Notes under the pieces: generated by a model
Databases searched by the model: none
Told to the model about the DNA's origin: nothing
What the model saw: the letters and a program-made list of their open reading frames with translations, nothing else
Translations under genes and position numbers: made by a program
From: an uncultured Bacilli bacterium
Lineage (GTDB): Bacteria; Bacillota_I; Bacilli_A; RF39; UBA660
Length of the DNA: 64,000 bases
Assembly: GCA_934130375.1 (NCBI GenBank)
Contig: CAKOXW010000001.1
Coordinates: 136,067-200,066, forward strand
Direction: 5' to 3'
Part shown: piece after piece, positions 3,095 to 57,518 of the stretch
How positions within the stretch are numbered: position 1 is the first letter of the stretch
How the letters are laid out: every line of letters begins with the position of its first letter

Positions 3095-5182
3095 ATGATG
3101 AGTGTAAAAGAATATGCTTTAGATGTAGGTAGAAGTGTAAAAGTAATATTAGATAAGTGCAATACTTTAGGTTTTTCTGCATCAAATGAAGATGATATCT
3201 TAAGTGAAGATGAAGTAATTGATCTTGATAATGCTGTTTATGAAGATAATGAAGAAGAAAACTTAATAGATAAAGCAGAAGAAATAGTATCTAATATGAA
3301 AAATGTAGATGATACTGTTCATGTACAAAAACTTAAGAAGAAAAGTGATATTATAAGTGCAAATGATTTTAAAAAAGAAAAGAAAGAAATGTATAAGCAT
3401 AAAGAAAAATTAATGTCTAATGCACCAGTTAAGGAAGATAATAAAATTGTATATGAAGAAAATATGACATTGTCTAAATTAGCAGAGAAATTAAATGCTA
3501 ATCCTATTGATTTAATAAAGAAATTCATGTCACTTGGAGTTATGGCTAATTTAAATAGTGTTGTTTCTTATGATGATGCTGAATTAGTTGTAATGGATTA
3601 TGATAAAGAATTAAAAAAAGCAGAAACAATGGATGCTAGTAATTTTGAGAAACTTGAAATTACTGATGATGCTAAGGATTTAGAACAGAGGCCTCCAGTT
3701 GTAACAATAATGGGACATGTTGACCATGGTAAAACTAGTTTACTTGATACTATAAGAAGAAGTAATGTAGTATCAGGTGAAGCAGGTGGTATTACTCAAC
3801 ATATTGGTGCTTATCAAGTAGAGAAAAATGGTAAGAAAATTACATTTATTGATACTCCTGGACATGCAGCATTTACAGAGATGCGTGCTAGAGGAGCAGC
3901 AATTACTGATATAGTAATTATTATAGTTGCAGCAGATGATGGTGTAATGCCTCAAACTAAAGAAGCAATTGATCATGCTAAGGCTGCTAAGGTGCCTATT
4001 ATAGTTGCTGTAAATAAAATAGATAAACCAGATGCAAATATACAAAAAGTATTAACTGAGATGACTGAGGCAGGTTTAACGCCTGATAGTTGGGGAGGAG
4101 ATACTACATTTGTAAATATTTCTGCAAAAACTGGAGAAGGTATTGATGAGTTATTAGAAACAATTTTGTTAACTGCTGAAATGCAAGATTTAAAAGCAAA
4201 TAAAAATAGGTATGCTTTAGGTACAGTTATAGAGGCAAAACTTGATAAGAACGTTGGATCTGTAGTAACTCTACTTATTCAAAATGGAACTCTAAGGTTA
4301 GGGGATCCTATAGTAGTTGGTACTTGTTTTGGTAAAGTTAGAACATTAAAAAATGATTTAGGTGAACAAATTGCGCATGCACTTCCATCTACTCCAGTTG
4401 AAATAACAGGTTTAAATGAAATACCTTCTGCGGGGGATAAGTTTATGGCTTTTGAAACTGAGAAACAAGCAAAGAGTATTGCTGAGGCTAGAAAAGAGAA
4501 AATGAAAGAGAAATCTAATAAGAATAGTAATTCTGTTAGTCTTGATGATTTATTTTCTAAGATTGAAAGTGGAGTTAAAGAAGTAAATATTATTTTAAAA
4601 GCAGATGTAAAGGGTTCTGAAGAAGCAGTTAGAAATGCTTTAATGAAAGTAAATGTAGAAGGTGTTAGAACTAATATAATTAGAAGTGGTACTGGAACAA
4701 TTACTGAAAGTGATATTGTTCTTGCAAATGCATCAAGTGCAATTATTATTGGATTTAATGTAAGACCATCTTCTAAGACTAAAGAATTTGCTAAGGAATA
4801 TAATGTTGATATTAGATTACATAATATTATATATAAAGTAGTAGAAGAGTTAGAATCTGCTATGAAAGGTATGCTTGACCCTGAATATGAAGAAAAAGTA
4901 TTAGGTGAGGCTGAAGTTAGACAATTATTTAAATTTTCTAAAGTTGGTACGATAGCAGGTTCTTATGTAACAAATGGTATTATTAAATCTAATTCTAAGG
5001 CTAGATTAATGCGTGATGGTGTTGTTATTTATGATGGCAGTATTAATTCAGTACAAAGAGAAAAAGATAGTGTTAAAGAAGTAAAACAAGGATTTGAATG
5101 TGGTATAACTCTTACTGATTATAGTGATATAAAAGAAGGGGATATAATTGAATCTTATGAAATGCAAGAGGTAAAAAGATGA
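3095..5182 (+). CDS. infB: Translation initiation factor IF-2
   Basis: GTP-binding domain [35 protein letters not shown] 6 nt before the ATG at 3095; the track start at 3086 is GTG. Confidence 0.95.
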
Positions 5183-5523
5183 AGATAAAAACAGAAAGAT
5201 ATGCTAGTCTTTTATTAAAAGAAATTAATGATATTTTATATAATGAAATACATGATGAAGATATTATTGGTACTACTGCAACATATGTAAAACTTGCTGA
5301 TGATTTAAGTTATGCTAAGGTATATTGTTCAGTATTTAAAACTGATAAGAAAGATAAAGCAATTCATGATTTAAATAATGCTGAAGGTTTTATTAAATCA
5401 ATTCTTTGTAAGAAAAAATTACCACTTAGAATAATACCTGATTTAGAATTTGTATATGATGAATCTATTGAATATGGTATGAAAATAGAGAAGATATTAG
5501 AAGAAACTAAGAAAGAAGATTAG
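5179..5523 (+). CDS. rbfA: Ribosome-binding factor A
   Basis: RbfA family sequence ([20 protein letters not shown]...). Overlaps the infB stop. Conserved operon position. Confidence 0.9.
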
Positions 5524-5538
5524 TTTCTTTTTATTTTG
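5504..5538 (+). terminator. AT-rich hairpin agaaacta...tagtttct overlapping the rbfA stop, followed by a T-tract
   Basis: Inverted repeat plus TTTTTATTTT read directly. Confidence 0.45.
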
Positions 5539-5567
5539 TGTGTAGTCTTGGTCTTAAATGATTTTTA

Positions 5568-5597
5568 GTACAAAAATAAAAAGACCTATTTGGTCTT
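5568..5597 (-). terminator. Rho-independent terminator (aagacc-aaat-aggtctt + T-run on minus strand) after the VanY-like gene
   Basis: Perfect 6-7 bp stem followed by UUUUUAUUUUU on the minus strand. Confidence 0.55.
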
Positions 5598-6410
5598 ATT
5601 TAATAAATATTCTTCTAGTGTTTTATTATTTTCATACATATATGTAGCATGTGAAATACCTACATATCTTATATGCCATGGTTCATTTTTATAACCAGTA
5701 ATATTTTTATTTTCTTCTGTATACCTAATAATAAATCCATATAAATGTGCATTATCTTTTAACCAAGTAAATTCTTTAGTATCACCAAAACTTGTATATG
5801 GAAGAATAGTATTATATAAATCATATGCATAACCAGTTTGATGTTCAGAATGTCCTGCTCTTGCAGAGTAGGTGTCAACTATTTCCTTAGTATCATTTCT
5901 TAAATATCCTTCATATAATTTTTTCTGATATTCATAATCTCTATATGCAGATACTATCTTAATATTAAGACCAAGAGAAAATGCATCATTATATAAATCT
6001 TTAAAATGATTATAAGCATCACTATCACCCTTAATATTACTATTTATAGCATAAGGATAACCATAATTAATTAAATTATTTGGTACATAATCTTCATCTA
6101 AATAATAATATTTATTTACAAGTACTAAGTCAGTATACTTATTAATACTTTCAAACTTCTTTTCATAAAAATTATAATCTAAATTTAAATTAACATTTTT
6201 TACGATTTCATCTAAAGATAAATTATTATTCTTTTCTTTATATGCATTATATCTATCTTTATTTTCTTCTTTATAAGTAGTTATTTCTTTAAAAACATTT
6301 ACTTCATTATTCATATTATTATCCCCCAAATTATTCTTTACAATAATTATATAAATGTTTAATGAAATTATTACTAAAATAAGAATAATAAATATAATAT
6401 TTTTCTTCAT
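5586..6410 (-). CDS. M15B family D-alanyl-D-alanine carboxypeptidase (VanY-like), N-terminal TM anchor
   Basis: SAYRDYEYQKKLY, SARAGHSEHQTGYAYDL, EPWHIRYVG match VanY/M15 zinc peptidase motifs. Confidence 0.75.
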   Translation of the reverse strand: MKKNIIFIILILVIISLNIYIIIVKNNLGDNNMNNEVNVFKEITTYKEENKDRYNAYKEKNNNLSLDEIVKNVNLNLDYNFYEKKFESINKYTDLVLVNKYYYLDEDYVPNNLINYGYPYAINSNIKGDSDAYNHFKDLYNDAFSLGLNIKIVSAYRDYEYQKKLYEGYLRNDTKEIVDTYSARAGHSEHQTGYAYDLYNTILPYTSFGDTKEFTWLKDNAHLYGFIIRYTEENKNITGYKNEPWHIRYVGISHATYMYENNKTLEEYLLNKTK

Positions 6411-6446
6411 ATTACCACCATTTATATTATAATATATTCAAATTTA

Positions 6447-7145
6447 TTAGACAAGAGAATAACATTTACGTTTAGATTTAACTTTTCTTGTATTTTTATC
6501 TGCAATCACTGAACCTTCTTTTGCTTCTGTATATAAATCATCTTTTAAAGGTAACCAAAGATGCAATCTATAATCCCCCTTATCATCAGTTACATCAACC
6601 CACTCAGCAATAATGCCTTCATCATTTTCACAAACATCCAAACCATGTTTATGCATAATGCCTTCTGAGTTAGAATTAGTTAAATCTGTCCTTGCGTATA
6701 CTAAGTCAAATCCATTGTAATATGCGTATTCAATAGCAAAAGAAACAAGTTCACTACAAGCACCTCTTCCTCTATATTCTTTTAGAGTAGATAATCCGTA
6801 GAAATATAGATTACTTGGAATGTGTGCATCACTAGATTTAAAATCTACTGATACATTTTCTTCATTGTAAGTGCATCCATTCATAGATACTGGTCTTAAA
6901 TGTTCATCTAAATATAAGAATAACTTACCATTATCATTATATAATTTTAATTCTTCACAAGCAGATTCATATGTAATTTCTTCTCCATATTGTTCTTCAA
7001 ATGATTTTAATAAACTCATAAGTACATAAGCACTTCTATCTGAGTAATTCATAGTTGCAATGTAACAACCATTATCTAATTTTTTCCATATTTTAAATTC
7101 ATGTTTATCATTAAATATTTCATTGTAAAATTCTTTCTTATTCAT
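6447..7145 (-). CDS. GNAT family N-acetyltransferase
   Basis: RGRGACSELVSFAIEYA acetyl-CoA binding motif. Start moved to the second ATG (7145), which has GGAGG 5 nt upstream and avoids overlap with the M20 gene. Confidence 0.65.
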   Translation of the reverse strand: MNKKEFYNEIFNDKHEFKIWKKLDNGCYIATMNYSDRSAYVLMSLLKSFEEQYGEEITYESACEELKLYNDNGKLFLYLDEHLRPVSMNGCTYNEENVSVDFKSSDAHIPSNLYFYGLSTLKEYRGRGACSELVSFAIEYAYYNGFDLVYARTDLTNSNSEGIMHKHGLDVCENDEGIIAEWVDVTDDKGDYRLHLWLPLKDDLYTEAKEGSVIADKNTRKVKSKRKCYSLV

Positions 7146-16159: not shown

Positions 16160-16768
16160 ATGATTTATAAACTTGCTAATAGTTTTTCGTATAATTCAAG
16201 AGAGGATTTGTATCAAGTTGGAATACTTGGGTTAATTAATGCATATAGAAAATATGATAGTAGTCTTGGTATAAAGTTTTCTACTTATGCTTATCCATTT
16301 ATACTTGGTGAGATGAAAAAGTATATAAGAGAGAATAATGGTATAAAGATTAGTAGAGATATTATATATTTAAGTAAAAGATTAGATAAATTAATAGAAA
16401 TATTAAAGAATAAAACTCATAGAAATCCAACTACTAGTGAACTAGCAAGTATATTAGAAGTTTCTGAATGGAAAATAGTTGAAGCACTTGGAATTAGAAA
16501 TTGTATAAAGAGCCTAGATGAATATGTAAACGATGATGAAAATATATCTTATATTGATACCATCAAGGTGAGTGATGGTATTGATGAAATAGAATTTAAT
16601 GATATGTTAAGTACATTAAGTGATACTGAAAGAGAAATAATAAGTGAGAAATATTTTTATGATAAATCTCAATCTGAGATTGCTAGTAATTTAGGATATT
16701 CACAAGCTAAAGTTTCAAGGGAAGAGAAAAAGATATTAGTAAAATTAAAGAATTATTACAAAGTATAG
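16160..16768 (+). CDS. Sigma-70 family sigma factor of the SigF/SigG/SigB group; coding region probably begins upstream of the first ATG
   Basis: DLYQVGILGL, KFSTYAYPFILGEMKKYIRENNGIKISR and C-terminal ...QAKVSREEKKIL match regions 2-4 of SigF-type factors. The in-frame upstream codons (DDNIVDELSIQIENNSK) continue the alignment, and AAAGGAGA lies at 16102-16109. Confidence 0.75.
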   Translation: MIYKLANSFSYNSREDLYQVGILGLINAYRKYDSSLGIKFSTYAYPFILGEMKKYIRENNGIKISRDIIYLSKRLDKLIEILKNKTHRNPTTSELASILEVSEWKIVEALGIRNCIKSLDEYVNDDENISYIDTIKVSDGIDEIEFNDMLSTLSDTEREIISEKYFYDKSQSEIASNLGYSQAKVSREEKKILVKLKNYYKV

Positions 16769-16795
16769 AAAAATCTAATGGTTTTTCTATTTTTT

Positions 16796-16816
16796 GTGTA
16801 TTCTTGGGCTTAAGTA
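16796..16816 (+). repeat. Copy of the recurrent 3' motif GTGTATTCTTGGGCTTAAGTA
   Basis: One of five near-identical copies (5538, 16796, 26731, 31717, 49547) following AT-rich terminators. Confidence 0.6.
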
Positions 16817-17045
16817 ATAAAATTTACAAAAATTAAAAAAATTACAAATTTATTAAATTTGTAACTTTTTTATAACTAATTTATTAAATTTGCTTAAACA
16901 GATTTCTAAAATTGTAAGTGTTTTTTACTTTAAAACCTTAAAATTTGCGATTTGACATATATTTTTAAGTTGATATGATGACATTGGAATACTTAACATT
17001 AGGTGATTGCCTTCTTGATTTTTAGTGATGAAGGGAGGTATGTGT

Positions 17046-17114
17046 ATGGTCAAAGATGTAACAGTCTTATTACTTGTAATTATCCTTCTTCTATTTGTGG
17101 TACGCTACTTATAG
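17046..17114 (+). CDS. Putative 22-aa hydrophobic peptide MVKDVTVLLLVIILLLFVVRYL (type I toxin-like / small membrane protein)
   Basis: AAGGGAGG SD 7 nt upstream of the ATG. Single TM-length hydrophobic core. Lies in an otherwise ORF-free 520-bp intergenic region. Followed by hairpin cctaatc-ataag-gattagg (17130-17148). Confidence 0.3.
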   Translation: MVKDVTVLLLVIILLLFVVRYL

Positions 17115-17313: not shown

Positions 17314-18633
17314 ATGAAGAAGAAAAATGGGTTTACTTTGGTTGAATTACTAGCAGTAATAGTAATACTCGCAATTATCTTAGTTATTGCGGTACCTAAA
17401 ATTACTGACACAATAAAAAATTCAAAGATTGCATCATTTGAGAGTAGTGCGAAAACTATTGCTGCGCAAGCAGAAAAGAAGAAAATGGAGAAAGAAATAC
17501 TAGAAGATACTGGAAGTATTAGTTGTAGTGACATTGTTAAATTAAATGATACTGATTATGGTAATTGTAGTATAACTTTCGATGGTAATACTGCTAAGGT
17601 TAGTTTAGTAGGAAAGGGTAAGTTTGAAGGACTATCAGTAATAAATGGTACTAAAGATAATGCAACTGCTGGTGAAGTTAAAATGCCTGAATATGGTAAA
17701 GGAACAACATTTATAAAGGCTTTATATGATAGTGATATATTAAGAAAAACAAATGGGCTTAAGAAAGACAATACAAGTGATGCAAATATAAGGTATGAAG
17801 GAGCAAATCCAAATAACTATGTATCATTTAATGATGAGCTATGGAGAATAATAGGAGTATTTGGTGATAACATTAAGTTAGTTAGAAGTGAACAATTAGG
17901 TAAATTATCGTGGGATAGTTCGGATTATTCAGTTAATATTGGTGATGGAGTAAATGAGTGGAGCCAAGCCGATTTAAAAGAATATTTAAATACAATGTAT
18001 TATGGCGGAACTAGTGTAACATGTTATGGCGGAAGAAGAAATGTAACTACGACATGTCCAAGTGGTAACATAAATTCATCTGCAAAGTCAATGATAAATA
18101 ATTATACTTGGAATACAGGTGCAATAAATTATGATGATACAACAATTGTAAATCAAGAAACATTTGCACTAAATACTGTACCATTTTATAATGCTGAAAG
18201 AGGTTCAGTAACTGGTAAAATATGCACAAGTGGAGATTTCTGTAATGACACAATTGAAAGAAAAACAACATGGCCGGGTTATGTAGCATTACCATATACA
18301 ACTGATTGGGCATATGCAAGTAGTGAGACTGCATGTGCAACTAATATGAAAGATGGTTTTGTTGCTGATACCTTGAATGTTGATAATATGACATGTAAGA
18401 AAAATAACTGGATGCATCATGGTAGTACAGTGAATGAAGGTATGTGGATGCTTTCGCCTGGTGCTTATTCCGTCTATGCTTACTACGTGTGGAGTGTCTC
18501 TGGTTCTGGAAATGTCTACAAAGCTTTTGCGGATATTGCACTTCCCGTTTTCCCATCCGTATATCTAAATACTGAAGTCAAAATAACAAGTGGAAGTGGT
18601 TCAAGTAGTGACCCATATATACTTGGTGTATAG
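17314..18633 (+). CDS. Modular type IV pilin-like protein 1 (prepilin N-terminus + ~110-aa pilin module + ~330-aa Cys/Trp-rich C-terminal module)
   Basis: MKKKNGFTLVELLAVIVILAIIL is a class III signal peptide with G|FTLVE. N-terminal ~110 aa are about 60% identical to the two paralogues at 31967 and 49825. RBS AGAAAGGGTG. Confidence 0.7.
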   Translation: MKKKNGFTLVELLAVIVILAIILVIAVPKITDTIKNSKIASFESSAKTIAAQAEKKKMEKEILEDTGSISCSDIVKLNDTDYGNCSITFDGNTAKVSLVGKGKFEGLSVINGTKDNATAGEVKMPEYGKGTTFIKALYDSDILRKTNGLKKDNTSDANIRYEGANPNNYVSFNDELWRIIGVFGDNIKLVRSEQLGKLSWDSSDYSVNIGDGVNEWSQADLKEYLNTMYYGGTSVTCYGGRRNVTTTCPSGNINSSAKSMINNYTWNTGAINYDDTTIVNQETFALNTVPFYNAERGSVTGKICTSGDFCNDTIERKTTWPGYVALPYTTDWAYASSETACATNMKDGFVADTLNVDNMTCKKNNWMHHGSTVNEGMWMLSPGAYSVYAYYVWSVSGSGNVYKAFADIALPVFPSVYLNTEVKITSGSGSSSDPYILGV

Positions 18634-26179: not shown

Positions 26180-26716
26180 ATGGCAAGAGTTAAAGGTGGA
26201 ACAGTAGCAAGAGCTAGAAGAAAGAAAACTTTAAAAGAAGCTAGTGGTTATTTTGGAAGTAAACACAGATTATATAAGACTGCTAAGGAACAATTATTAC
26301 ATTCTGGAGTATATGCTTATAGAGATAGAAGACAAAAGAAGAGAGATTTTAGAAAATTATGGATTACTAGAATTAATGCTGCTTGTCGTGAAAATGAAAT
26401 TAGTTATTCTAAATTCATAAATGGTCTTAACAAAGCAGGTTTAACTGTTAATAGAAAGATGTTAGCAGAACTTGCAATTGATAATGAAAAAGCATTTGCT
26501 GATTTAGTAGTTATTGCTAAGGATGCTTTAGAAGGTAAGGAATATAAACCAGCTAAGGTTAAATTAGAAAGTAAGAAAGAAGAAAAAGTAGAAGTTAAAG
26601 AAAAAGCACCTGCTAAGAAGGCTGCTGCTAAAAAAGAGACTACTACTAAGAAAACTACTACAACTGCTAAGAAAGCACCAGCAAAGAAAACTACAACTAA
26701 GAAAGAAACTAAGTAA
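26180..26716 (+). CDS. rplT: 50S ribosomal protein L20 with ~60-aa Lys/Ala/Thr-rich C-terminal extension
   Basis: [16 protein letters not shown]...[18 protein letters not shown] is canonical L20 (~118 aa). The extra tail is [38 protein letters not shown]. Confidence 0.9.
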
Positions 26717-26731
26717 TTGGTTTCTTTTTTT
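26703..26731 (+). terminator. AT-rich hairpin aagaaac..gtttctt overlapping the rplT stop + T7
   Basis: Read directly. A second hairpin+T8 at 26770-26808. Confidence 0.4.
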
Positions 26732-26754
26732 GTGTATTCGTGGGCTTAAATAAT
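26731..26754 (+). repeat. Copy of recurrent 3' motif TGTGTATTCGTGGGCTTAAATAAT
   Basis: Motif family, see 16796. Confidence 0.55.
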
Positions 26755-26876
26755 ACTAATATTATTTTAAGATAAAGTAATTTATAAAAAACTTTATCTT
26801 TTTTTTAATTTTTTAGGGGAAATTAAAAAGTTTTAGGGAATATTCCATATATAGAGTAATTACAAAGGAGGATTAA

Positions 26877-27764
26877 ATGAATTACTATGATGAAATAAAA
26901 AAAGAATTAGTAAATAATGAAATATATAAAAGAGTAAAAGATTATTCAAAGAACAGACATGATTTAAGTACGTATTACAATGTAGGTAAATTATTAAGTG
27001 AGGCAGGTAAGAGTTATGGTGATGGCATTATTAAGGAATATAGTAAAAGACTTACAAATGAATTAGGGAAAGGTTATGGCATTAGTACATTAAAAAATAT
27101 GAGAAAATATTATATATTATCAAAAAGCCAGGCACTGCCTGGCCTTTTGACATGGTCACATTATTGTGAATTGTTTTCAATAAAAAATATAGATGAGATT
27201 AGATATTATATAGATATTTCTATTTCACAAAATTTAAGTTATAGAGAATTAAGAAATAGAATAAAATCAAAAGAATATGAAAGATTAGATAATAAAACAA
27301 AAGAAAAACTAATTAATAAAGAAGATACTATAGTAAGTGATTTTATAAAAGACCCAATTATAATTAATAATAGTTTAAATTATATAGAAATATCGGAAAG
27401 AGTATTAAAGGAATTAATATTAAATGATTTAGATAATTTTCTTAATCAATTAGGTAATGGTTTTTGCTATATTGGTTCTGAATACAAGATTAAGATTGGA
27501 AATACTTATAATTATATAGATATATTACTTTATAACATTGAATTTAATTGTTATGTAGTTGTAGAGTTGAAAGTAACTGAATTAAGAAAAGAGCATATTG
27601 GACAAATTGAAATATATATGAATTATATTGATAAAAATGTAAAAAAAATTGGTATGGATAATACAATTGGTTTAATAATATCTAAGTATAAAAATGAGTA
27701 TATAATTGAATACTCAAGTGATAGTCGTATTAAAGTAACTACTTATTTGATAAAGCAGAATTAA
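26877..27764 (+). CDS. DUF1016 / YhcG-like PD-(D/E)XK nuclease family protein
   Basis: C-terminal GFCYIGSEYKI...YIDILLYNIEFNCYVVVELKVTEL...GQIEIYMNYID matches the YhcG restriction-endonuclease-like core. RBS AAAGGAGGA. Confidence 0.65.
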   Translation: MNYYDEIKKELVNNEIYKRVKDYSKNRHDLSTYYNVGKLLSEAGKSYGDGIIKEYSKRLTNELGKGYGISTLKNMRKYYILSKSQALPGLLTWSHYCELFSIKNIDEIRYYIDISISQNLSYRELRNRIKSKEYERLDNKTKEKLINKEDTIVSDFIKDPIIINNSLNYIEISERVLKELILNDLDNFLNQLGNGFCYIGSEYKIKIGNTYNYIDILLYNIEFNCYVVVELKVTELRKEHIGQIEIYMNYIDKNVKKIGMDNTIGLIISKYKNEYIIEYSSDSRIKVTTYLIKQN

Positions 27765-31292: not shown

Positions 31293-31697
31293 ATGGCAGA
31301 TATTAATAGAAGTGAATTAAGAAAAATTATTATGACTGCACTTTATCAAATAAGTGTTTATAAATCAAGTAAGATTAAATATGATACTAATGAAGTTATT
31401 AAAGAATTATTAGAAGTTAAAAATGATTTTGTAAATGAAATAGTATTCGGTGTTTTAGAGCATGAAGATGAATTAGTAGATATTGCTAATAAGTATTTAA
31501 AAGATTGGACTATAGATAGATTAGGAAAAACTGACCAAGCAATACTTAAGATAGGTTTATATGAATTATTATATACTGATACACCTGATATAGTATGTAT
31601 AAATGAAGCCTTAGAGTTAGCAAGCGAGTACTCTGATGATAAAGTAAAAAGTATGATTAATGCAGTACTAGATAACGTAATGAAAAATAAAGATTAA
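31293..31697 (+). CDS. nusB: Transcription antitermination factor NusB
   Basis: RSELRKIIMTALYQ, DRLGKTDQAILKIGLYELLY. RBS GTGAGGTG. Confidence 0.85.
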   Translation: MADINRSELRKIIMTALYQISVYKSSKIKYDTNEVIKELLEVKNDFVNEIVFGVLEHEDELVDIANKYLKDWTIDRLGKTDQAILKIGLYELLYTDTPDIVCINEALELASEYSDDKVKSMINAVLDNVMKNKD

Positions 31698-31716
31698 TTT
31701 CTTTATTTTTTTTATA

Positions 31717-32288
31717 ATATGTATTCTTTGACTTAAGTAGTTTATATTATATATTTATAAATTTATATGTTAAAGATTATAAGTTTTATATTATTTTGAA
31801 TACAAGTAACATCCCCTAATAATTAGTTAAAAAGTGGTTGTTTTGATATAAAATGTTAAAACTTTTGTAAATTTTCGTCAAAAATAGACCTAAAAAACGC
31901 CCTCGCCCATTGCCAAATGGGGGGGGGTGTATAGTATAATAACCTTGTATAATAGAGGAGGAAATTATGAAGAAAAAGAAGGGTTTTACTTTAGTAGAAT
32001 TATTAGCAGTAATAGTTATTTTGGCAGTTATACTAATTATTGCAATGCCAAAAATAAGTGATGTAATTAAGAATTCTAAGGAAGCATCATTAGAAACAAC
32101 TGCAAAATTAATAGCAAGTCAGGCAGAAAAGAAATATACTGAAAATCAAGTATTAGATGGTTCAACTACAATAAAATGTAGTGATGTTGCTAAGATAAGT
32201 GATACTGATTATGAAAGTTGTAATATTACTTTTGATAGTAAAGGTAATGCTAAAGTAACAATAGTAGGTAAGGGTAAGTTTGAAGGTT
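31717..32288 (+). repeat. Cassette B: ~570 bp (recurrent 3' motif + leader + promoter + first ~107 codons of pilin-like gene 2), near-identical to 49547-50146
   Basis: Aligned by eye: shared leader ...ttatattattttgaatacaagtaacatcc...gatataaaatgttaaaa...tttgtaaattttcgtcaaaaatag..cgcc..cgcccattgccaaatggggggggg...aggaggaaat and nearly identical N-terminal coding. Confidence 0.7.
31919..31927 (+). repeat. G9 homopolymer between the TTGCCA (31910-31915) and TATAAT (31935-31940) hexamers
   Basis: Counted directly. Spacer is 19 nt. Confidence 0.8.
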
Positions 32289-32875
32289 TACAAGTAGTAG
32301 ATGGAACTAAAGATAGTGCAAAAGCAAGCGCTAAGAAAGAAATTGTTGAAACTGCTGCTAAGTATTTTAGTTATGAAGAAGTGGAAGGCGGTATGTCAAT
32401 AACAGGTTATAATATTGCTGGAGGAACTGATGTAGTAATACCATCACAAATAGATGGTAAGACAGTTGTTGCTATTGGAGATTTGGCATTTACAACAAGA
32501 GGTATTATACCAACACTTACTGCTTATAATAATGATTATAAAGTAAGTTTATTAAGTTATAATTCTAATAATAATTATGTGGTAAAACCGCTTGTAACAG
32601 ATCTTAAAGGTTTAGGAATAACTTCGGTAGTGATACCTAATACAGTAACAAGCATAGGTAATAATGCATTTGCTGATAATAAGTTAACTAATATTACAAT
32701 ACCATCAAGTGTTATTGAAATAAGTCTTGAAGCGTTTTACGGCAATCAAATAAGTTCAATTACATTTCCTGATACACCAATCACTCTTGGCTGTAGAGTA
32801 TTTGCTCGTAATCCAATTTCTGCAGATGAAACTTATAGTTTACCAAGTAATGTTACTTATGTATGTGTAAATTGA
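31967..32875 (+). CDS. Modular type IV pilin-like protein 2 (pilin module + BspA-type leucine-rich-repeat module)
   Basis: MKKKKGFTLVELLAVIVILAVIL prepilin N-terminus. C-terminal repeats ...IPNTVTSIGNNAFADNKLTNITIPSSVIEISLEAFYGN... are typical of BspA-like LRR surface proteins. RBS GGAGGA. Confidence 0.7.
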   Translation: MKKKKGFTLVELLAVIVILAVILIIAMPKISDVIKNSKEASLETTAKLIASQAEKKYTENQVLDGSTTIKCSDVAKISDTDYESCNITFDSKGNAKVTIVGKGKFEGLQVVDGTKDSAKASAKKEIVETAAKYFSYEEVEGGMSITGYNIAGGTDVVIPSQIDGKTVVAIGDLAFTTRGIIPTLTAYNNDYKVSLLSYNSNNNYVVKPLVTDLKGLGITSVVIPNTVTSIGNNAFADNKLTNITIPSSVIEISLEAFYGNQISSITFPDTPITLGCRVFARNPISADETYSLPSNVTYVCVN

Positions 32876-49546: not shown

Positions 49547-50146
49547 ATATGTATTCTTGGGCTTTATTAGTTTATATTACATTTATAAAAGAATTACAAA
49601 AAAGTAATTCTTTTAAACTTATATATTAAAGATTATATAGTTTTATATTATTTTGAATACAAGTAACATCCAGTTAAAAATAGCTAAAAAGTAGTTATTT
49701 GATATAAAATGTTAAAAACTTTGTAAATTTTCGTCAAAAATAGGCCTGAAAAACGCCTCCGCCCATTGCCAAATGGGGGGGGGTGTTATGCTATAATAAT
49801 TACATAAAATAGAGGAGGAAATTTATGAAGAAAAAGAAGGGTTTTACTTTAGTGGAATTATTAGCAGTAATAGTTATTTTGGCAGTTATACTAATTATTG
49901 CAATGCCAAAAATAAGTGATGTAATTAAGAATTCTAAAGAAGCATCATTAGAAACAACTGCAAAGTTAATAGCAAGTCAAGCAGAGAAGAAATATACTGA
50001 AAATCAAGTATTAGATGGTAGTAGTACAATAAAATGTAGTGATGTTGCTAAGATAAATGATGCTGACTATGAAAGTTGTAATATTACTTTTGATGATAAG
50101 GGTAATGCAAAAGTATCAATAGTAGGTAAGGGTAAGTTTGAAGGTA
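49547..50146 (+). repeat. Cassette C: ~600 bp near-identical to cassette B (31717-32288)
   Basis: See cassette B. Encoded N-termini differ at only a handful of residues over ~107 aa. Confidence 0.7.
49775..49783 (+). repeat. G9 homopolymer between TTGCCA (49766-49771) and TATAAT (49792-49797)
   Basis: Counted directly. Spacer is 20 nt. Confidence 0.8.
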
Positions 50147-50898
50147 TGGCTGTATGCAATGCTAATAAGAATAGTGCATCTATATCTAGTGATTGTTCAA
50201 CAAATGCATCTTATTTTACATATGAGGACACTACTATAGTAACTAACGTTATTGTTGAAGATGCGAATAAGTGCAAGAGTTATATTCAAACAAAGCATTT
50301 AACTGAAGAACAAGCAACAACGTTGTGTACTGAAGGTTCAATAACAATTGGTGAATCTACTGGTTCGTTAAAAGATTTAGTTGTAGTTGGTGCGATACCA
50401 TCAAGTGATTATGAGACAGTAGGATTAAGAATAGAAACAAAAGATGGTATATCAATAACTGGTTATAATATAGAAGGAGGAACTGATGTAGTAATACCAT
50501 CACAAATAGATGGCAAGACAGTTGTTGCTATTGGAGATAATACAAGTGATGGTCTAGGAATAACTTCAGTGGTAATACCAAATTCAGTGACAAGCATAGG
50601 TATGAATGCATTTAGATGGAACAAATTAACAAATGTAACAATTCCATCAAGTGTTAAAACAATAGGTCATAGTGCATTTAGAGGGAACAAATTAACAAAT
50701 GTAACAATTCCTAGTAGTGTTATTTCAATAGATTACTATGCTTTTAATAGTAATCCAAATATTGTAATTACCAATAATTCGAGTATTGAAAATACACAAG
50801 ATGTTTGGGATAAAATTTTAGGAATAGACGGGTCATGTTCTCCGAAAGTAACTATAACAAATAATATTATTGAAATAGGTGTGGGACCTAATTGCTAA
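49825..50898 (+). CDS. Modular type IV pilin-like protein 3 (pilin module + Cys-containing linker + BspA-type LRR module)
   Basis: Same prepilin N-terminus. Shares internal blocks SITGYNIEGGTDVVIPSQIDGKTVVAIGD and GLGITSVVIPNSVTSIG with protein 2 (mosaic). LRR-type repeats NKLTNVTIPSSV. Confidence 0.7.
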   Translation: MKKKKGFTLVELLAVIVILAVILIIAMPKISDVIKNSKEASLETTAKLIASQAEKKYTENQVLDGSSTIKCSDVAKINDADYESCNITFDDKGNAKVSIVGKGKFEGMAVCNANKNSASISSDCSTNASYFTYEDTTIVTNVIVEDANKCKSYIQTKHLTEEQATTLCTEGSITIGESTGSLKDLVVVGAIPSSDYETVGLRIETKDGISITGYNIEGGTDVVIPSQIDGKTVVAIGDNTSDGLGITSVVIPNSVTSIGMNAFRWNKLTNVTIPSSVKTIGHSAFRGNKLTNVTIPSSVISIDYYAFNSNPNIVITNNSSIENTQDVWDKILGIDGSCSPKVTITNNIIEIGVGPNC

Positions 50899-54886: not shown

Positions 54887-55834
54887 ATGAAAAAGTATTT
54901 TGTAGTATTTGTTGCTGTATTAGCATTGTTTACTGGATGTTCTAAAGATAATGATAATAAGAACAACAAGGATAATAATAGTAGTAATAATAACAATAAT
55001 AGTGTAGTTGAGAGTAAGAATTTAGTTGATGCTGTTTTAAAGAATAAAAATAAATCAGAAAATGATTATAAGAAATTTGTTGGTGGAGAGGTTTTAAATG
55101 AGAATACTAATTTCTTAGAATATGCTTTTATTTCTAATAATAAAGCATATATATATAATCCTGAAAAACTCAATTCTTCAGAGTTAAGTTATAAATTAGT
55201 ATATGAAATACCTAGTGATATTACAATAACTAATGTAGGTATTCCATATGGTGCGGATATATATTTTTATGATAATTTGGGTGGAAAGTATGCAGTTTAT
55301 GATGATAATACAGATAGTAAAATAGAACCTGGTTATAGTTTGTTTGAAAGAGCAATATATAAATTTAAAAAAGTTAATCAAGTTCCTTATACAGTTGCGC
55401 ATAATTTAACAAGGGATTATGATTTAAGATGTAATATGTTTTATGCTAAAGATAATGTTTTATATGAGATACAAGAGGAGTATTATCACTTTACTGAAAA
55501 GAGAACTGTTCCAGCAACAACTTTTAAGGTAAATGGTAATTATGAAGGTGAAAAGATATTACATTTTTACAATGATAGAATAATGAAAACTGATAAAGGC
55601 TTTTATGAAATTGCTAGATATAGTGGTGATAATGGGCCTATAACTGCAACATTTAAGATTGATTTATTAAGTAAATTCTATGATGAAGTATTAACATTTA
55701 CTTATGAATATGTAATATTAAAAGATTATACAATGATACCAATTGATGATGTTATGACAAATAGAGGTAAAACATATAATTATAATTTCTATGTAGATAG
55801 ATTTGAAGAAGTAAAAGATACATTTGTTGAATAA
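54887..55834 (+). CDS. Hypothetical lipoprotein with Asn-rich low-complexity linker
   Basis: Lipobox FTGCSK, then NNKNNKDNNSSNNNNNS. Confidence 0.4.
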   Translation: MKKYFVVFVAVLALFTGCSKDNDNKNNKDNNSSNNNNNSVVESKNLVDAVLKNKNKSENDYKKFVGGEVLNENTNFLEYAFISNNKAYIYNPEKLNSSELSYKLVYEIPSDITITNVGIPYGADIYFYDNLGGKYAVYDDNTDSKIEPGYSLFERAIYKFKKVNQVPYTVAHNLTRDYDLRCNMFYAKDNVLYEIQEEYYHFTEKRTVPATTFKVNGNYEGEKILHFYNDRIMKTDKGFYEIARYSGDNGPITATFKIDLLSKFYDEVLTFTYEYVILKDYTMIPIDDVMTNRGKTYNYNFYVDRFEEVKDTFVE

Positions 55835-56009
55835 ACAGATGTATTTTTCATATACGATTAAAAAGAATAAAATCTAATCGTAAATGGAAAAATGTCAAAG
55901 GAAATGTTACTTTTGCAATTATAAAGTTAATAAAATAATTAAAAAAGTAACAAAAAATATTTCTTTTTGAAATTAAATATTGTATAATTGTTTTGTAGAG
56001 GTGTTAGAT

Positions 56010-57442: not shown

Positions 57443-57518
57443 TTGCAATATAAGTAATATTAAAATACATTTGTTGAATAAATAAATGTATTTTTTTATA
57501 TAATTAAATGGTGATACT

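Follow-up and report, generated by a model that had tools for sequence, protein, structure and literature searches.

A short oriented motif recurs past stop codons and at the 5' edge of variable gene cassettes in an uncultured gut Bacilli bacterium

Background

Species-specific extragenic repeats and hot spots for gene cassettes are both known kinds of bacterial sequence, the former exemplified by REP/BIME elements and the latter by the minimal mobile elements of Neisseria, with their DNA uptake sequence (DUS) and Correia repeats. REP/BIME elements of Enterobacteria and Pseudomonas are short, species-specific, strictly extragenic and concentrated at the 3' ends of genes near terminators, as is the motif that we describe here, and their copies number in the tens to hundreds. 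A REP is an imperfect palindrome headed by GTAG and has a linked RAYT transposase, whereas our motif has an orientation locked to that of the upstream gene and neither dyad symmetry nor an inverted partner. Throughout the 64,000-nt stretch of DNA that we analyzed (hereafter, the window) and at all further loci, we found no dyad symmetry, no conserved RNA pairing and no inverted copy; the GGGC core lacks self-complementarity, and folds leave the motif flank unpaired.

The minimal mobile elements of Neisseria are similar in that different whole-gene cassettes, none with mobility genes, occupy the same slot between conserved genes, and in that the junctions, adjacent to terminators, carry small species-specific repeats. 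At nusB-ppa, rbfA and HK-RR (HK, histidine kinase) we likewise observe alternative cassettes, again free of mobility genes, flanked by the same conserved genes. The repeats themselves differ. DUS are 10-12 nt long, are found at a density of about one per kb, in both orientations, and often come as inverted pairs; none of these features is seen in the motif, which does not have the distribution of a DUS or USS (five copies in 64 kb, all on one strand and all intergenic). Terminal inverted repeats and a TA duplication characterize Correia elements, and neither is seen for the motif: a MITE-like or Correia-like structure is not supported by any minus-strand copy in the window or at any locus, and the nusB junctions carry no duplication.

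Three other systems invite comparison. Class C group II introns reportedly (Robart, Seo & Zimmerly, PNAS 2007) insert right after the T-tract of an intrinsic terminator, co-oriented with the upstream gene, and a site of this kind (behind a terminator T-tract, in sense orientation) is present at 11 of the 15 loci described below. They differ in what is inserted, which here consists of ordinary genes with promoters (pilin-like genes, YhcG, Ku/ligase); ribozyme domains D5/D6 and a reverse transcriptase ORF were not found, nor was there an Rfam intron match. Integron cassettes (attI/attC) are also promoter-proximal, co-oriented single-gene units with one conserved boundary and variable cargo, but the cassettes studied here have no attC hairpin with inverse core sites (R''/R'), are dispersed singly rather than arrayed and have their own promoters. 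Their 3' ends are plain terminators with no shared core, and no integrase was found in the window region. Phage "morons" and the end-insulator of Tn916 are comparable as autonomous promoter-gene-terminator units between host transcription units and as an element-borne barrier to read-through; they share no 24-nt terminal motif, and the setting here is one of chromosomal housekeeping loci. The motif is distinct from the known kinds in four ways: it is non-palindromic, strictly oriented, located at the terminator T-tract and found at the 5' edge of cassettes. A full-text literature search found no description of this repeat.

Results and discussion

Five copies of the motif in the window

The plus strand of the window, which has a G+C content of 26%, carries five copies of the motif (Table 1), against a chance expectation of 0.03 from dinucleotide shuffles. 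Scanning the window with the 20-mer TGTATTCTTGGGCTTAAGTA at up to three mismatches gives four plus-strand matches, at 16797, 26733, 31720 and 49550, and a fifth, degenerate copy, TGTAGTCTTGGTCTTAAATG, lies at 5541-5560. In a position-weight scan of both strands the five copies score 34-42 bits and everything else at most 14 bits. The recurrence noticed in a sequence-only reading of this DNA is thus real, and the copy coordinates given there hold with shifts of only 1-3 nt. The same reading placed all copies in one orientation shortly past stop codons, which is what we find: all five are on the plus strand, 7-28 nt past the stop of a co-oriented gene (the gap to the core being 17 nt at rbfA, 28 at the sigma gene, 16 at rplT, 22 at nusB and 7 at HK). 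Pfam assigns the products of the five upstream genes to RbfA, a sigma-70-family protein, L20, NusB and a histidine kinase. No other dispersed G/C-containing k-mers were found in the window.

Table 1. Features at and around the motif copies in the window (energies are folding energies)
Feature	Coordinates	Strand	Remarks
Motif copy 1	5539..5562	+	Degenerate (TGTAGTCTTGGTCTTAAATG), after rbfA; faces convergent VanY gene, no cargo
Motif copy 2	16795..16818	+	After accessory SigB/F/G-like sigma factor gene; followed by family A module and pilin-like gene 1
Motif copy 3	26731..26754	+	After rplT; 5' edge of YhcG (PDDEXK nuclease) cassette
Motif copy 4	31718..31741	+	After nusB; opens pilin-LRR cassette of ~1.19 kb that is absent from some strains
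Motif copy 5	49548..49571	+	7 nt past histidine kinase stop codon; 5' edge of second pilin-LRR cassette
rbfA terminator, AT-rich hairpin and T-tract	5499..5538	+	Directly 5' of copy 1; -10.4 kcal/mol
Sigma gene terminator, AT-rich hairpin and T-tract	16765..16794	+	Directly 5' of copy 2; -9.9 kcal/mol
rplT terminator, AT-rich hairpin and T-tract	26699..26730	+	Directly 5' of copy 3; left arm in coding sequence; -12.4 kcal/mol
nusB terminator, AT-rich hairpin and T-tract	31677..31717	+	Directly 5' of copy 4; kept in empty allele
Second hairpin and T-tract	16834..16872	+	3' of copy 2
Second hairpin and T-tract	26769..26808	+	17 nt 3' of copy 3
Hairpin and T-tract	49586..49615	+	17 nt 3' of copy 5; first terminator-like structure past HK gene
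Pilin-like gene 1 (N_methyl prepilin signal)	17314..18633	+	Cargo downstream of copy 2
YhcG/DUF1016 PDDEXK nuclease gene	26877..27764	+	Cargo downstream of copy 3
Pilin-LRR gene 2 (N_methyl and BspA-type LRR)	31967..32875	+	Cargo of nusB cassette
Pilin-LRR gene 3	49825..50898	+	Cargo of HK cassette
G9 tract	31919..31927	+	In spacer of the nusB cassette's own promoter (TTGCCA-19 nt-TATAAT)
G9 tract	49775..49783	+	In spacer of promoter of second (HK) cassette

Comparison of 14 loci delimits a conserved block of ~24 nt, positions -2 to +21, which reads T-R-TGTATTC-K-TGGGCTTAA-R-TA-R-T. Invariant positions make up 17 of the 24, G1, C6, G10 and C12 among them, in flanks that are unrelated to one another; information content is highest at C6, G9-G11 and C12. 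A weaker TTATATTACA-like tail reaches to about +31, and 5' of the block there is only T-richness. Positions -1, 7 and 17 switch between the same two states among strains at nearly every locus, which suggests that they are either free to vary inside a site otherwise under constraint or exchanged from copy to copy. These three positions would be silent in the frame of a mini-ORF, (A/G)TG TAT TCK TGG GCT TAA (MYSWA*), which we nevertheless rejected: the third position of GCT is invariant, conservation runs beyond the stop codon, a Shine-Dalgarno sequence is lacking, and the frame closes early in the copies of rbfA, L032 and L079. By-eye comparison with sigma-54, SigB, ECF, Spo0A, cre, DnaA-box, boxA and Tus-Ter sequences and with an Xer/dif-like dyad gave weak likenesses, none of which fits the conserved G/C positions.

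Fifteen loci within a single lineage

Ten further loci on related human-gut metagenome contigs bring the total in this species to 15 independent loci, in ~0.5 Mb of partly redundant DNA. Contigs collinear with the window, from the Hadza and other gut metagenome cohorts, were found via the window's L20 protein. A metagenome scan for the motif returned 22 matches, 16 of which are gut contigs of 24-28% G+C with the same layout, and lookups of pilin paralogues contributed two more loci. At all 15, the motif points the same way as the upstream gene, whose stop lies 5-37 nt before the motif begins. The upstream genes, mostly housekeeping, are rbfA, the sigma factor gene, rplT, nusB, HK, a MiaB-like gene, GatB, UvrA, an E1-E2 ATPase, a pgsA-like gene, two ABC genes, an NTP-transferase gene, a 519-aa gene and one more. 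Among the possibilities that the sequence-only reading had listed, the small dispersed repeat is therefore both supported and extended, as a lineage-restricted element at 15 loci.

An exact-pattern scan of 185,579 species genomes (one per species, the source species not among them) gave 25 single matches in unrelated taxa, at about chance level, a scatter from which it follows that the source species is not in the genome collection and that the motif is not widespread. Viral contigs held chance matches only, and plasmids and phages only matches with E >= 3, on which ground a known IS end was rejected; an Rfam 15 covariance-model search at the motif matched no family. Sister species of the same G+C (L20 identity ~88% or ~82%) have no copy in ~92 kb, and they too have variable pilin-LRR genes behind terminators. 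From these searches taken together we infer that the motif is lineage-specific. The close relative L079 (ppa 91% identical) has one diverged copy, TGTAGTCTATGGCTTAAGTGAT, 46 nt past a gene's stop codon and 25 nt before a terminator.

Being lineage-specific, over-represented and close to terminators are properties of Neisseria DUS as well, and the genome encodes many ComGC-like pilins, so that one might take the motif for a DNA uptake sequence of a type IV pilus/competence system that favors the uptake and spread of motif-bearing DNA. This we hold to be very improbable. The motif occurs about once per 13 kb, as opposed to about once per kb for known uptake sequences, is 24 nt long, and is found in one orientation and in intergenic DNA only. 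We know of no uptake specificity in Bacillota.

The L20 protein used for the lookups (26180-26716) has a Lys/Thr/Ala-rich C-terminal extension of ~60 aa that is common to a whole clade of low-G+C gut Bacilli-like organisms. Its homologues with the extension are 165-200 aa long, on contigs of up to 1.3 Mb.

Terminators before and after the motif

An AT-rich hairpin with a T-tract lies directly 5' of four of the five window copies, with energies of -9.9 to -12.4 kcal/mol (ViennaRNA) against a background of -3.2 +/- 2.4 kcal/mol for 42-mers of the window. Such hairpins have 0-2 G-C pairs and are therefore not called by a simple terminator scan, which needs at least three. The statement that every copy lies just after a hairpin and T-tract consequently stands for these four and fails for the HK copy, where no hairpin precedes the motif and the first real one follows it (the 70-nt segment downstream of this copy folds at -12.8 kcal/mol). 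Across the species, a hairpin with T-tract is found just 5' of the motif at 11 of 15 loci and is missing upstream at the other four; those four and most of the rest have a hairpin/T-tract 17-56 nt 3' of the motif. Since the upstream hairpins are unrelated in sequence between loci and absent from four of them, the motif is not the conserved tail of one terminator family, an outcome that the sequence-only reading had considered.

The position of the motif right behind the T-tract of such weak hairpins would suit a termination aid or insulator. Located where RNA polymerase lets go of the template at weak AT-rich terminators, the motif would either be bound by a lineage-specific protein or act as a downstream-duplex element. 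It would keep transcription from running on into convergent genes or into cargo that is phase-variable or harmful, and would have spread incidentally, carried along by cassettes. Both kinds of context, with cargo and with a convergent gene, agree with this, as does the contiguous, asymmetric conservation of 22-24 bp with a G/C core, which looks like a protein-binding site; the insulator terminator at the end of Tn916 (PMC11658703) is a published precedent. However, an upstream hairpin is missing from four of the 15 loci, the motif is absent from sister species that have comparable AT-rich terminators as well as pilin-LRR genes, no candidate binding protein was identified, and insulation alone leaves the breakpoints at the 5' edge of the motif, described below, unexplained. 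As the whole account we consider it unlikely, if a serious contender. A protein-binding site, one of the earlier suggestions, is possible; an antitermination site, another, finds no support.

Terminators on the 3' side raise the alternative of an RNA element in read-through or 3'-UTR transcripts, either a processing or stability signal or the seed of a small RNA derived from the 3' UTR and ending at the downstream hairpin. The motif is always co-oriented with, and near, the upstream stop codon, and most copies have a terminator 17-56 nt further on. In HK, L033, L046, L054 and L079 no terminator intervenes between the stop codon and the motif, which must therefore be transcribed there. Against this, a terminator precedes the motif at 11 of 15 loci, no conserved structure or pairing partner, Rfam family or complementary site in the window was found, and the downstream "body" is not conserved between families. 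We regard an RNA function as improbable.

Two further features of hairpins in this region may be recorded. The loop of the hairpin that follows copy 5 (49586-49615) is reverse-complemented at ~2600-2640 of L058 (AAAAAC vs GTTTTT), a hairpin-loop inversion, and two 91%-identical terminator-like hairpins, AARATACATTTGTTGAATAAA.ARATGTATTTTT, follow neighboring genes at 55815-55848 and 57462-57495.

Cassettes, their cargo and their promoters

Sequence 3' of the motif falls into at least six families that share only the motif: a small-peptide module with pilin gene 1 (family A), the YhcG nuclease cassette (family B), pilin-LRR cassettes (family C), copies without cargo that face a convergent gene (family D), a gene for a holin-like membrane protein (family E), and an ABC/FtsX gene followed by a pilin gene (family F). 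Within family C, homology among the seven loci begins at the motif. Each cargo unit is equipped with a promoter and a terminator, and the order in a cassette is motif, short AT-rich leader (often with a hairpin), promoter, cargo and terminator. The sequence-only reading had assigned two copies to the 5' edge of duplicated pilin cassettes, and those at 31720 and 49550 are indeed the first bases of these cassettes; it had put a third ~500 bp upstream of pilin-like gene 1, and the distance from the 16797 copy is 517 nt to the ATG (17314) or 493 nt to the start of the longest ORF.

Every pilin-LRR gene examined (in the window, L031, L032 and L075-L077) has the promoter TTGCCA-AATG9TGTATAG-TATAAT, with a G9 homopolymer in its 19-nt spacer. 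This tract is a candidate slipped-strand switch for phase variation. No variation in its length was found, G9 being present in all 10 assemblies; in L042 the G tract is interrupted (GGGAGG). Cargo downstream of copy 2 is served by a TTGACA-16-TATGAT promoter at 16952.

An alternative-sigma promoter, the first function proposed for the motif, would consist of GTATT as -35 and a TATATTA-like -10 about 17 nt downstream, with the accessory SigB/F/G-like factor encoded at 16160-16768 as the candidate and transcription starting a few nt 3' of TAAGTAAT. GTATT does resemble the -35 of SigF/G (GYATA), several families have a weak TATATTA-like block at +23 to +29, the neighboring sigma gene belongs to the SigB/F/G family, and the nusB variant scores as TTGACT-16-TATATT. 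Yet conservation is strongest (C6, G9-G11, C12) between the GTATT and TAAGTA boxes, where a spacer should vary freely, so that instead of two boxes around a non-conserved spacer the information peaks inside the proposed spacer. Nor is there always a co-oriented transcription unit downstream: at two loci, that of rbfA and that seen in L038, L049 and L051, the motif is aimed at a convergent gene and a terminator follows within 17-36 nt. Cargo is transcribed from sigma-A-like promoters of its own, and the sigma gene is missing from strains that retain motifs. Promoter-like matches in the window are not above those in shuffles, and the scan calls just one of the five copies, a locus-specific variant. 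We therefore disfavor this proposal and think it highly improbable.

Several observations concern the cargo itself. The pilin-LRR family comprises prepilin-signal proteins fused to BspA-type leucine-rich repeats and is large and very diverse (the three genes of Table 1; P0121-P0240), the N-terminal ~140 aa being conserved and the C-terminus variable; gut metagenomes hold thousands of variants, at many chromosomal sites and with presence or absence differing by strain. A gene for a 22-aa hydrophobic peptide, MVKDVTVLLLVIILLLFVVRYL (17046-17114), has a strong promoter (16952-16979), a ribosome-binding site and a terminator; the module recurs elsewhere (L029, L031, L076 ~5330-5400) and resembles a type I toxin or small membrane peptide. 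A second dispersed intergenic repeat, AAATTTGCTTAARCAGATTT, is located at 16886-16905 and also in L075 (~5431) and L076 (~5200), within the A-rich, hairpin-bearing family A module, which is found with or without the main motif. In L046, a Ku and ATP-dependent ligase (NHEJ) operon (3602-6559, on the motif strand) begins 103 nt 3' of a motif copy.

Differences between strains at motif sites

Structural variation between strains adjoins all five window sites. At nusB-ppa, L029, L030 and L031 retain the nusB terminator and lack the motif and cassette. The alleles part exactly at ...TTTATAATA/TGTATTC (ATAATA/TGTATTC, the slash marking the breakpoint) and rejoin at the ppa -10 box, the 1.19 kb cassette substituting for ~39 nt; the slot is either empty or holds a pilin gene of 302 or 377 aa. 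Downstream of rbfA there is VanY or other genes, depending on the strain, and L066 diverges inside the T-tract, with other genes and no motif. At the HK site, L056, L057 and L059 have lost the pilin gene and retained the motif, the leader of ~100 nt and the 3' terminator, so that HK-RR is found with or without a pilin gene. At rplT, L030 has lost most of YhcG via a 12-nt direct repeat and kept the motif.

The same downstream DNA also appears behind different genes. The YhcG (family B) leader is identical in L052, where it follows rplT, and in L054, where it follows the NTP-transferase gene, the homology beginning at TTATG/TGTATTC. The family A module follows the sigma gene, the 519-aa gene or an ABC gene, and occurs without the motif in L029 and L076. 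In some strains the 519-aa gene replaces the upstream gene at the sigma locus; it has its own hairpin and motif in L031 and is joined directly to motif-less family A DNA in L029, the indel between the two taking in the upstream hairpin too. Since further indels between strains within the same 20 kb lack the motif, variation does not require it.

The sigma gene itself (16160-16768) is short and of the SigB/F/G family, below all NCBIfam cut-offs, and adjoins a gene for a zinc-ribbon protein. The pair forms an accessory block that is missing from several strains.

Variation of this kind could also be read neutrally, with the motif as ordinary intergenic DNA that segmental duplications of pilin loci carried along and that now decays, having neither a function nor a dedicated mechanism. 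Many copies do belong to duplicated pilin leaders, and strains differ about as often inside the motif as in its flanks. On the other hand, six downstream families share the motif alone, 17 of 24 positions are invariant over 14 loci whose flanks are unrelated, and all 15 loci keep the motif at a strict position with respect to the stop codon. A neutral relic is, in our judgment, a poor prospect.

The motif as a proposed cassette boundary

The motif has a constant position and orientation and is restricted to one lineage; DNA starting at it is present, absent or replaced according to strain, and the same downstream module stands behind different host genes. Because it is the common 5' terminus of otherwise unrelated modules, we infer that it is most likely a sequence used in DNA movement. 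Our leading interpretation, to which we give somewhat less than an even chance, is that self-contained cassettes behind host terminators have the motif in common as their 5' terminal or junction sequence, and that it is used in placing or copying them. That a lineage-specific, non-palindromic sequence of ~24 nt should be the only one common to such a set of gene cassettes is a description that we put forward tentatively, as nearly an even call. The inserted cassettes mostly encode pilin-like adhesins, and just as tentatively we count many pilin-LRR genes behind the G9-tract promoter among their cargo. The breakpoints at or just 5' of the motif (nusB-ppa, rbfA in L066, the YhcG leader, family A and family C) support the boundary reading.

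Under this interpretation, cassettes would be lodged behind the T-tract of a host intrinsic terminator and ahead of the next host promoter, always pointing the same way as the host gene upstream, and would be placed or copied next to terminators through the motif. The motif might be recognized in trans by a recombinase or transposase, or might be the crossover or junction point itself, and gene-less copies would be minimal or decayed cassettes. A secondary role as upstream insulator of the cassette is compatible with this; insulation and mobility are not mutually exclusive.

Several findings count against a boundary. The nusB insertion is not clean, pilin genes are lost with the motif retained in the HK strains, family A DNA occurs without the motif, motif-free indels are found in the same region, and in the relative L079 the motif is at the 3' side of a cargo-like gene. 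We found no conserved right-end motif and no inverted copy at the 3' end of any cassette, no target-site duplication (the nusB junctions show replacement instead) and no recombinase or transposase next to any motif copy. A "AAATTGATATT" likeness at cassette 3' ends is accounted for by the -35 boxes of the next genes.

The boundary reading can be carried further, to a previously undescribed cassette-mobilization system whose recognition end would be the motif. Such a system would set promoter-gene-terminator units directly behind housekeeping intrinsic terminators, in one orientation and without inverted repeats or target duplications, and would thereby distribute phase-variable pilin-LRR adhesin genes around a gut Bacilli chromosome. 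This extension is unlikely. If the motif is a handle for placing cassettes, it would represent a new way to add insulated accessory genes beside essential genes without disruption and would explain how surface adhesins of a large and rapidly changing family are spread over the genome of an uncultured organism that is common in the human gut. Even conservatively, it marks cassette hot spots in strain comparisons from metagenomes and serves as a species-specific signature sequence.

Mobile elements are present near one motif copy. At the same point, ~60 nt upstream of it, L049 (720-2303) and L051 (8293-9888) carry different elements, one with a large serine recombinase and the other with a tyrosine integrase, ArdC and DUF4314. 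We considered the motif as an att site of such serine or tyrosine recombinases and rejected it: since both elements end ~60 nt before the motif, ahead of the shared terminator, their target is the end of the upstream gene and not the motif.
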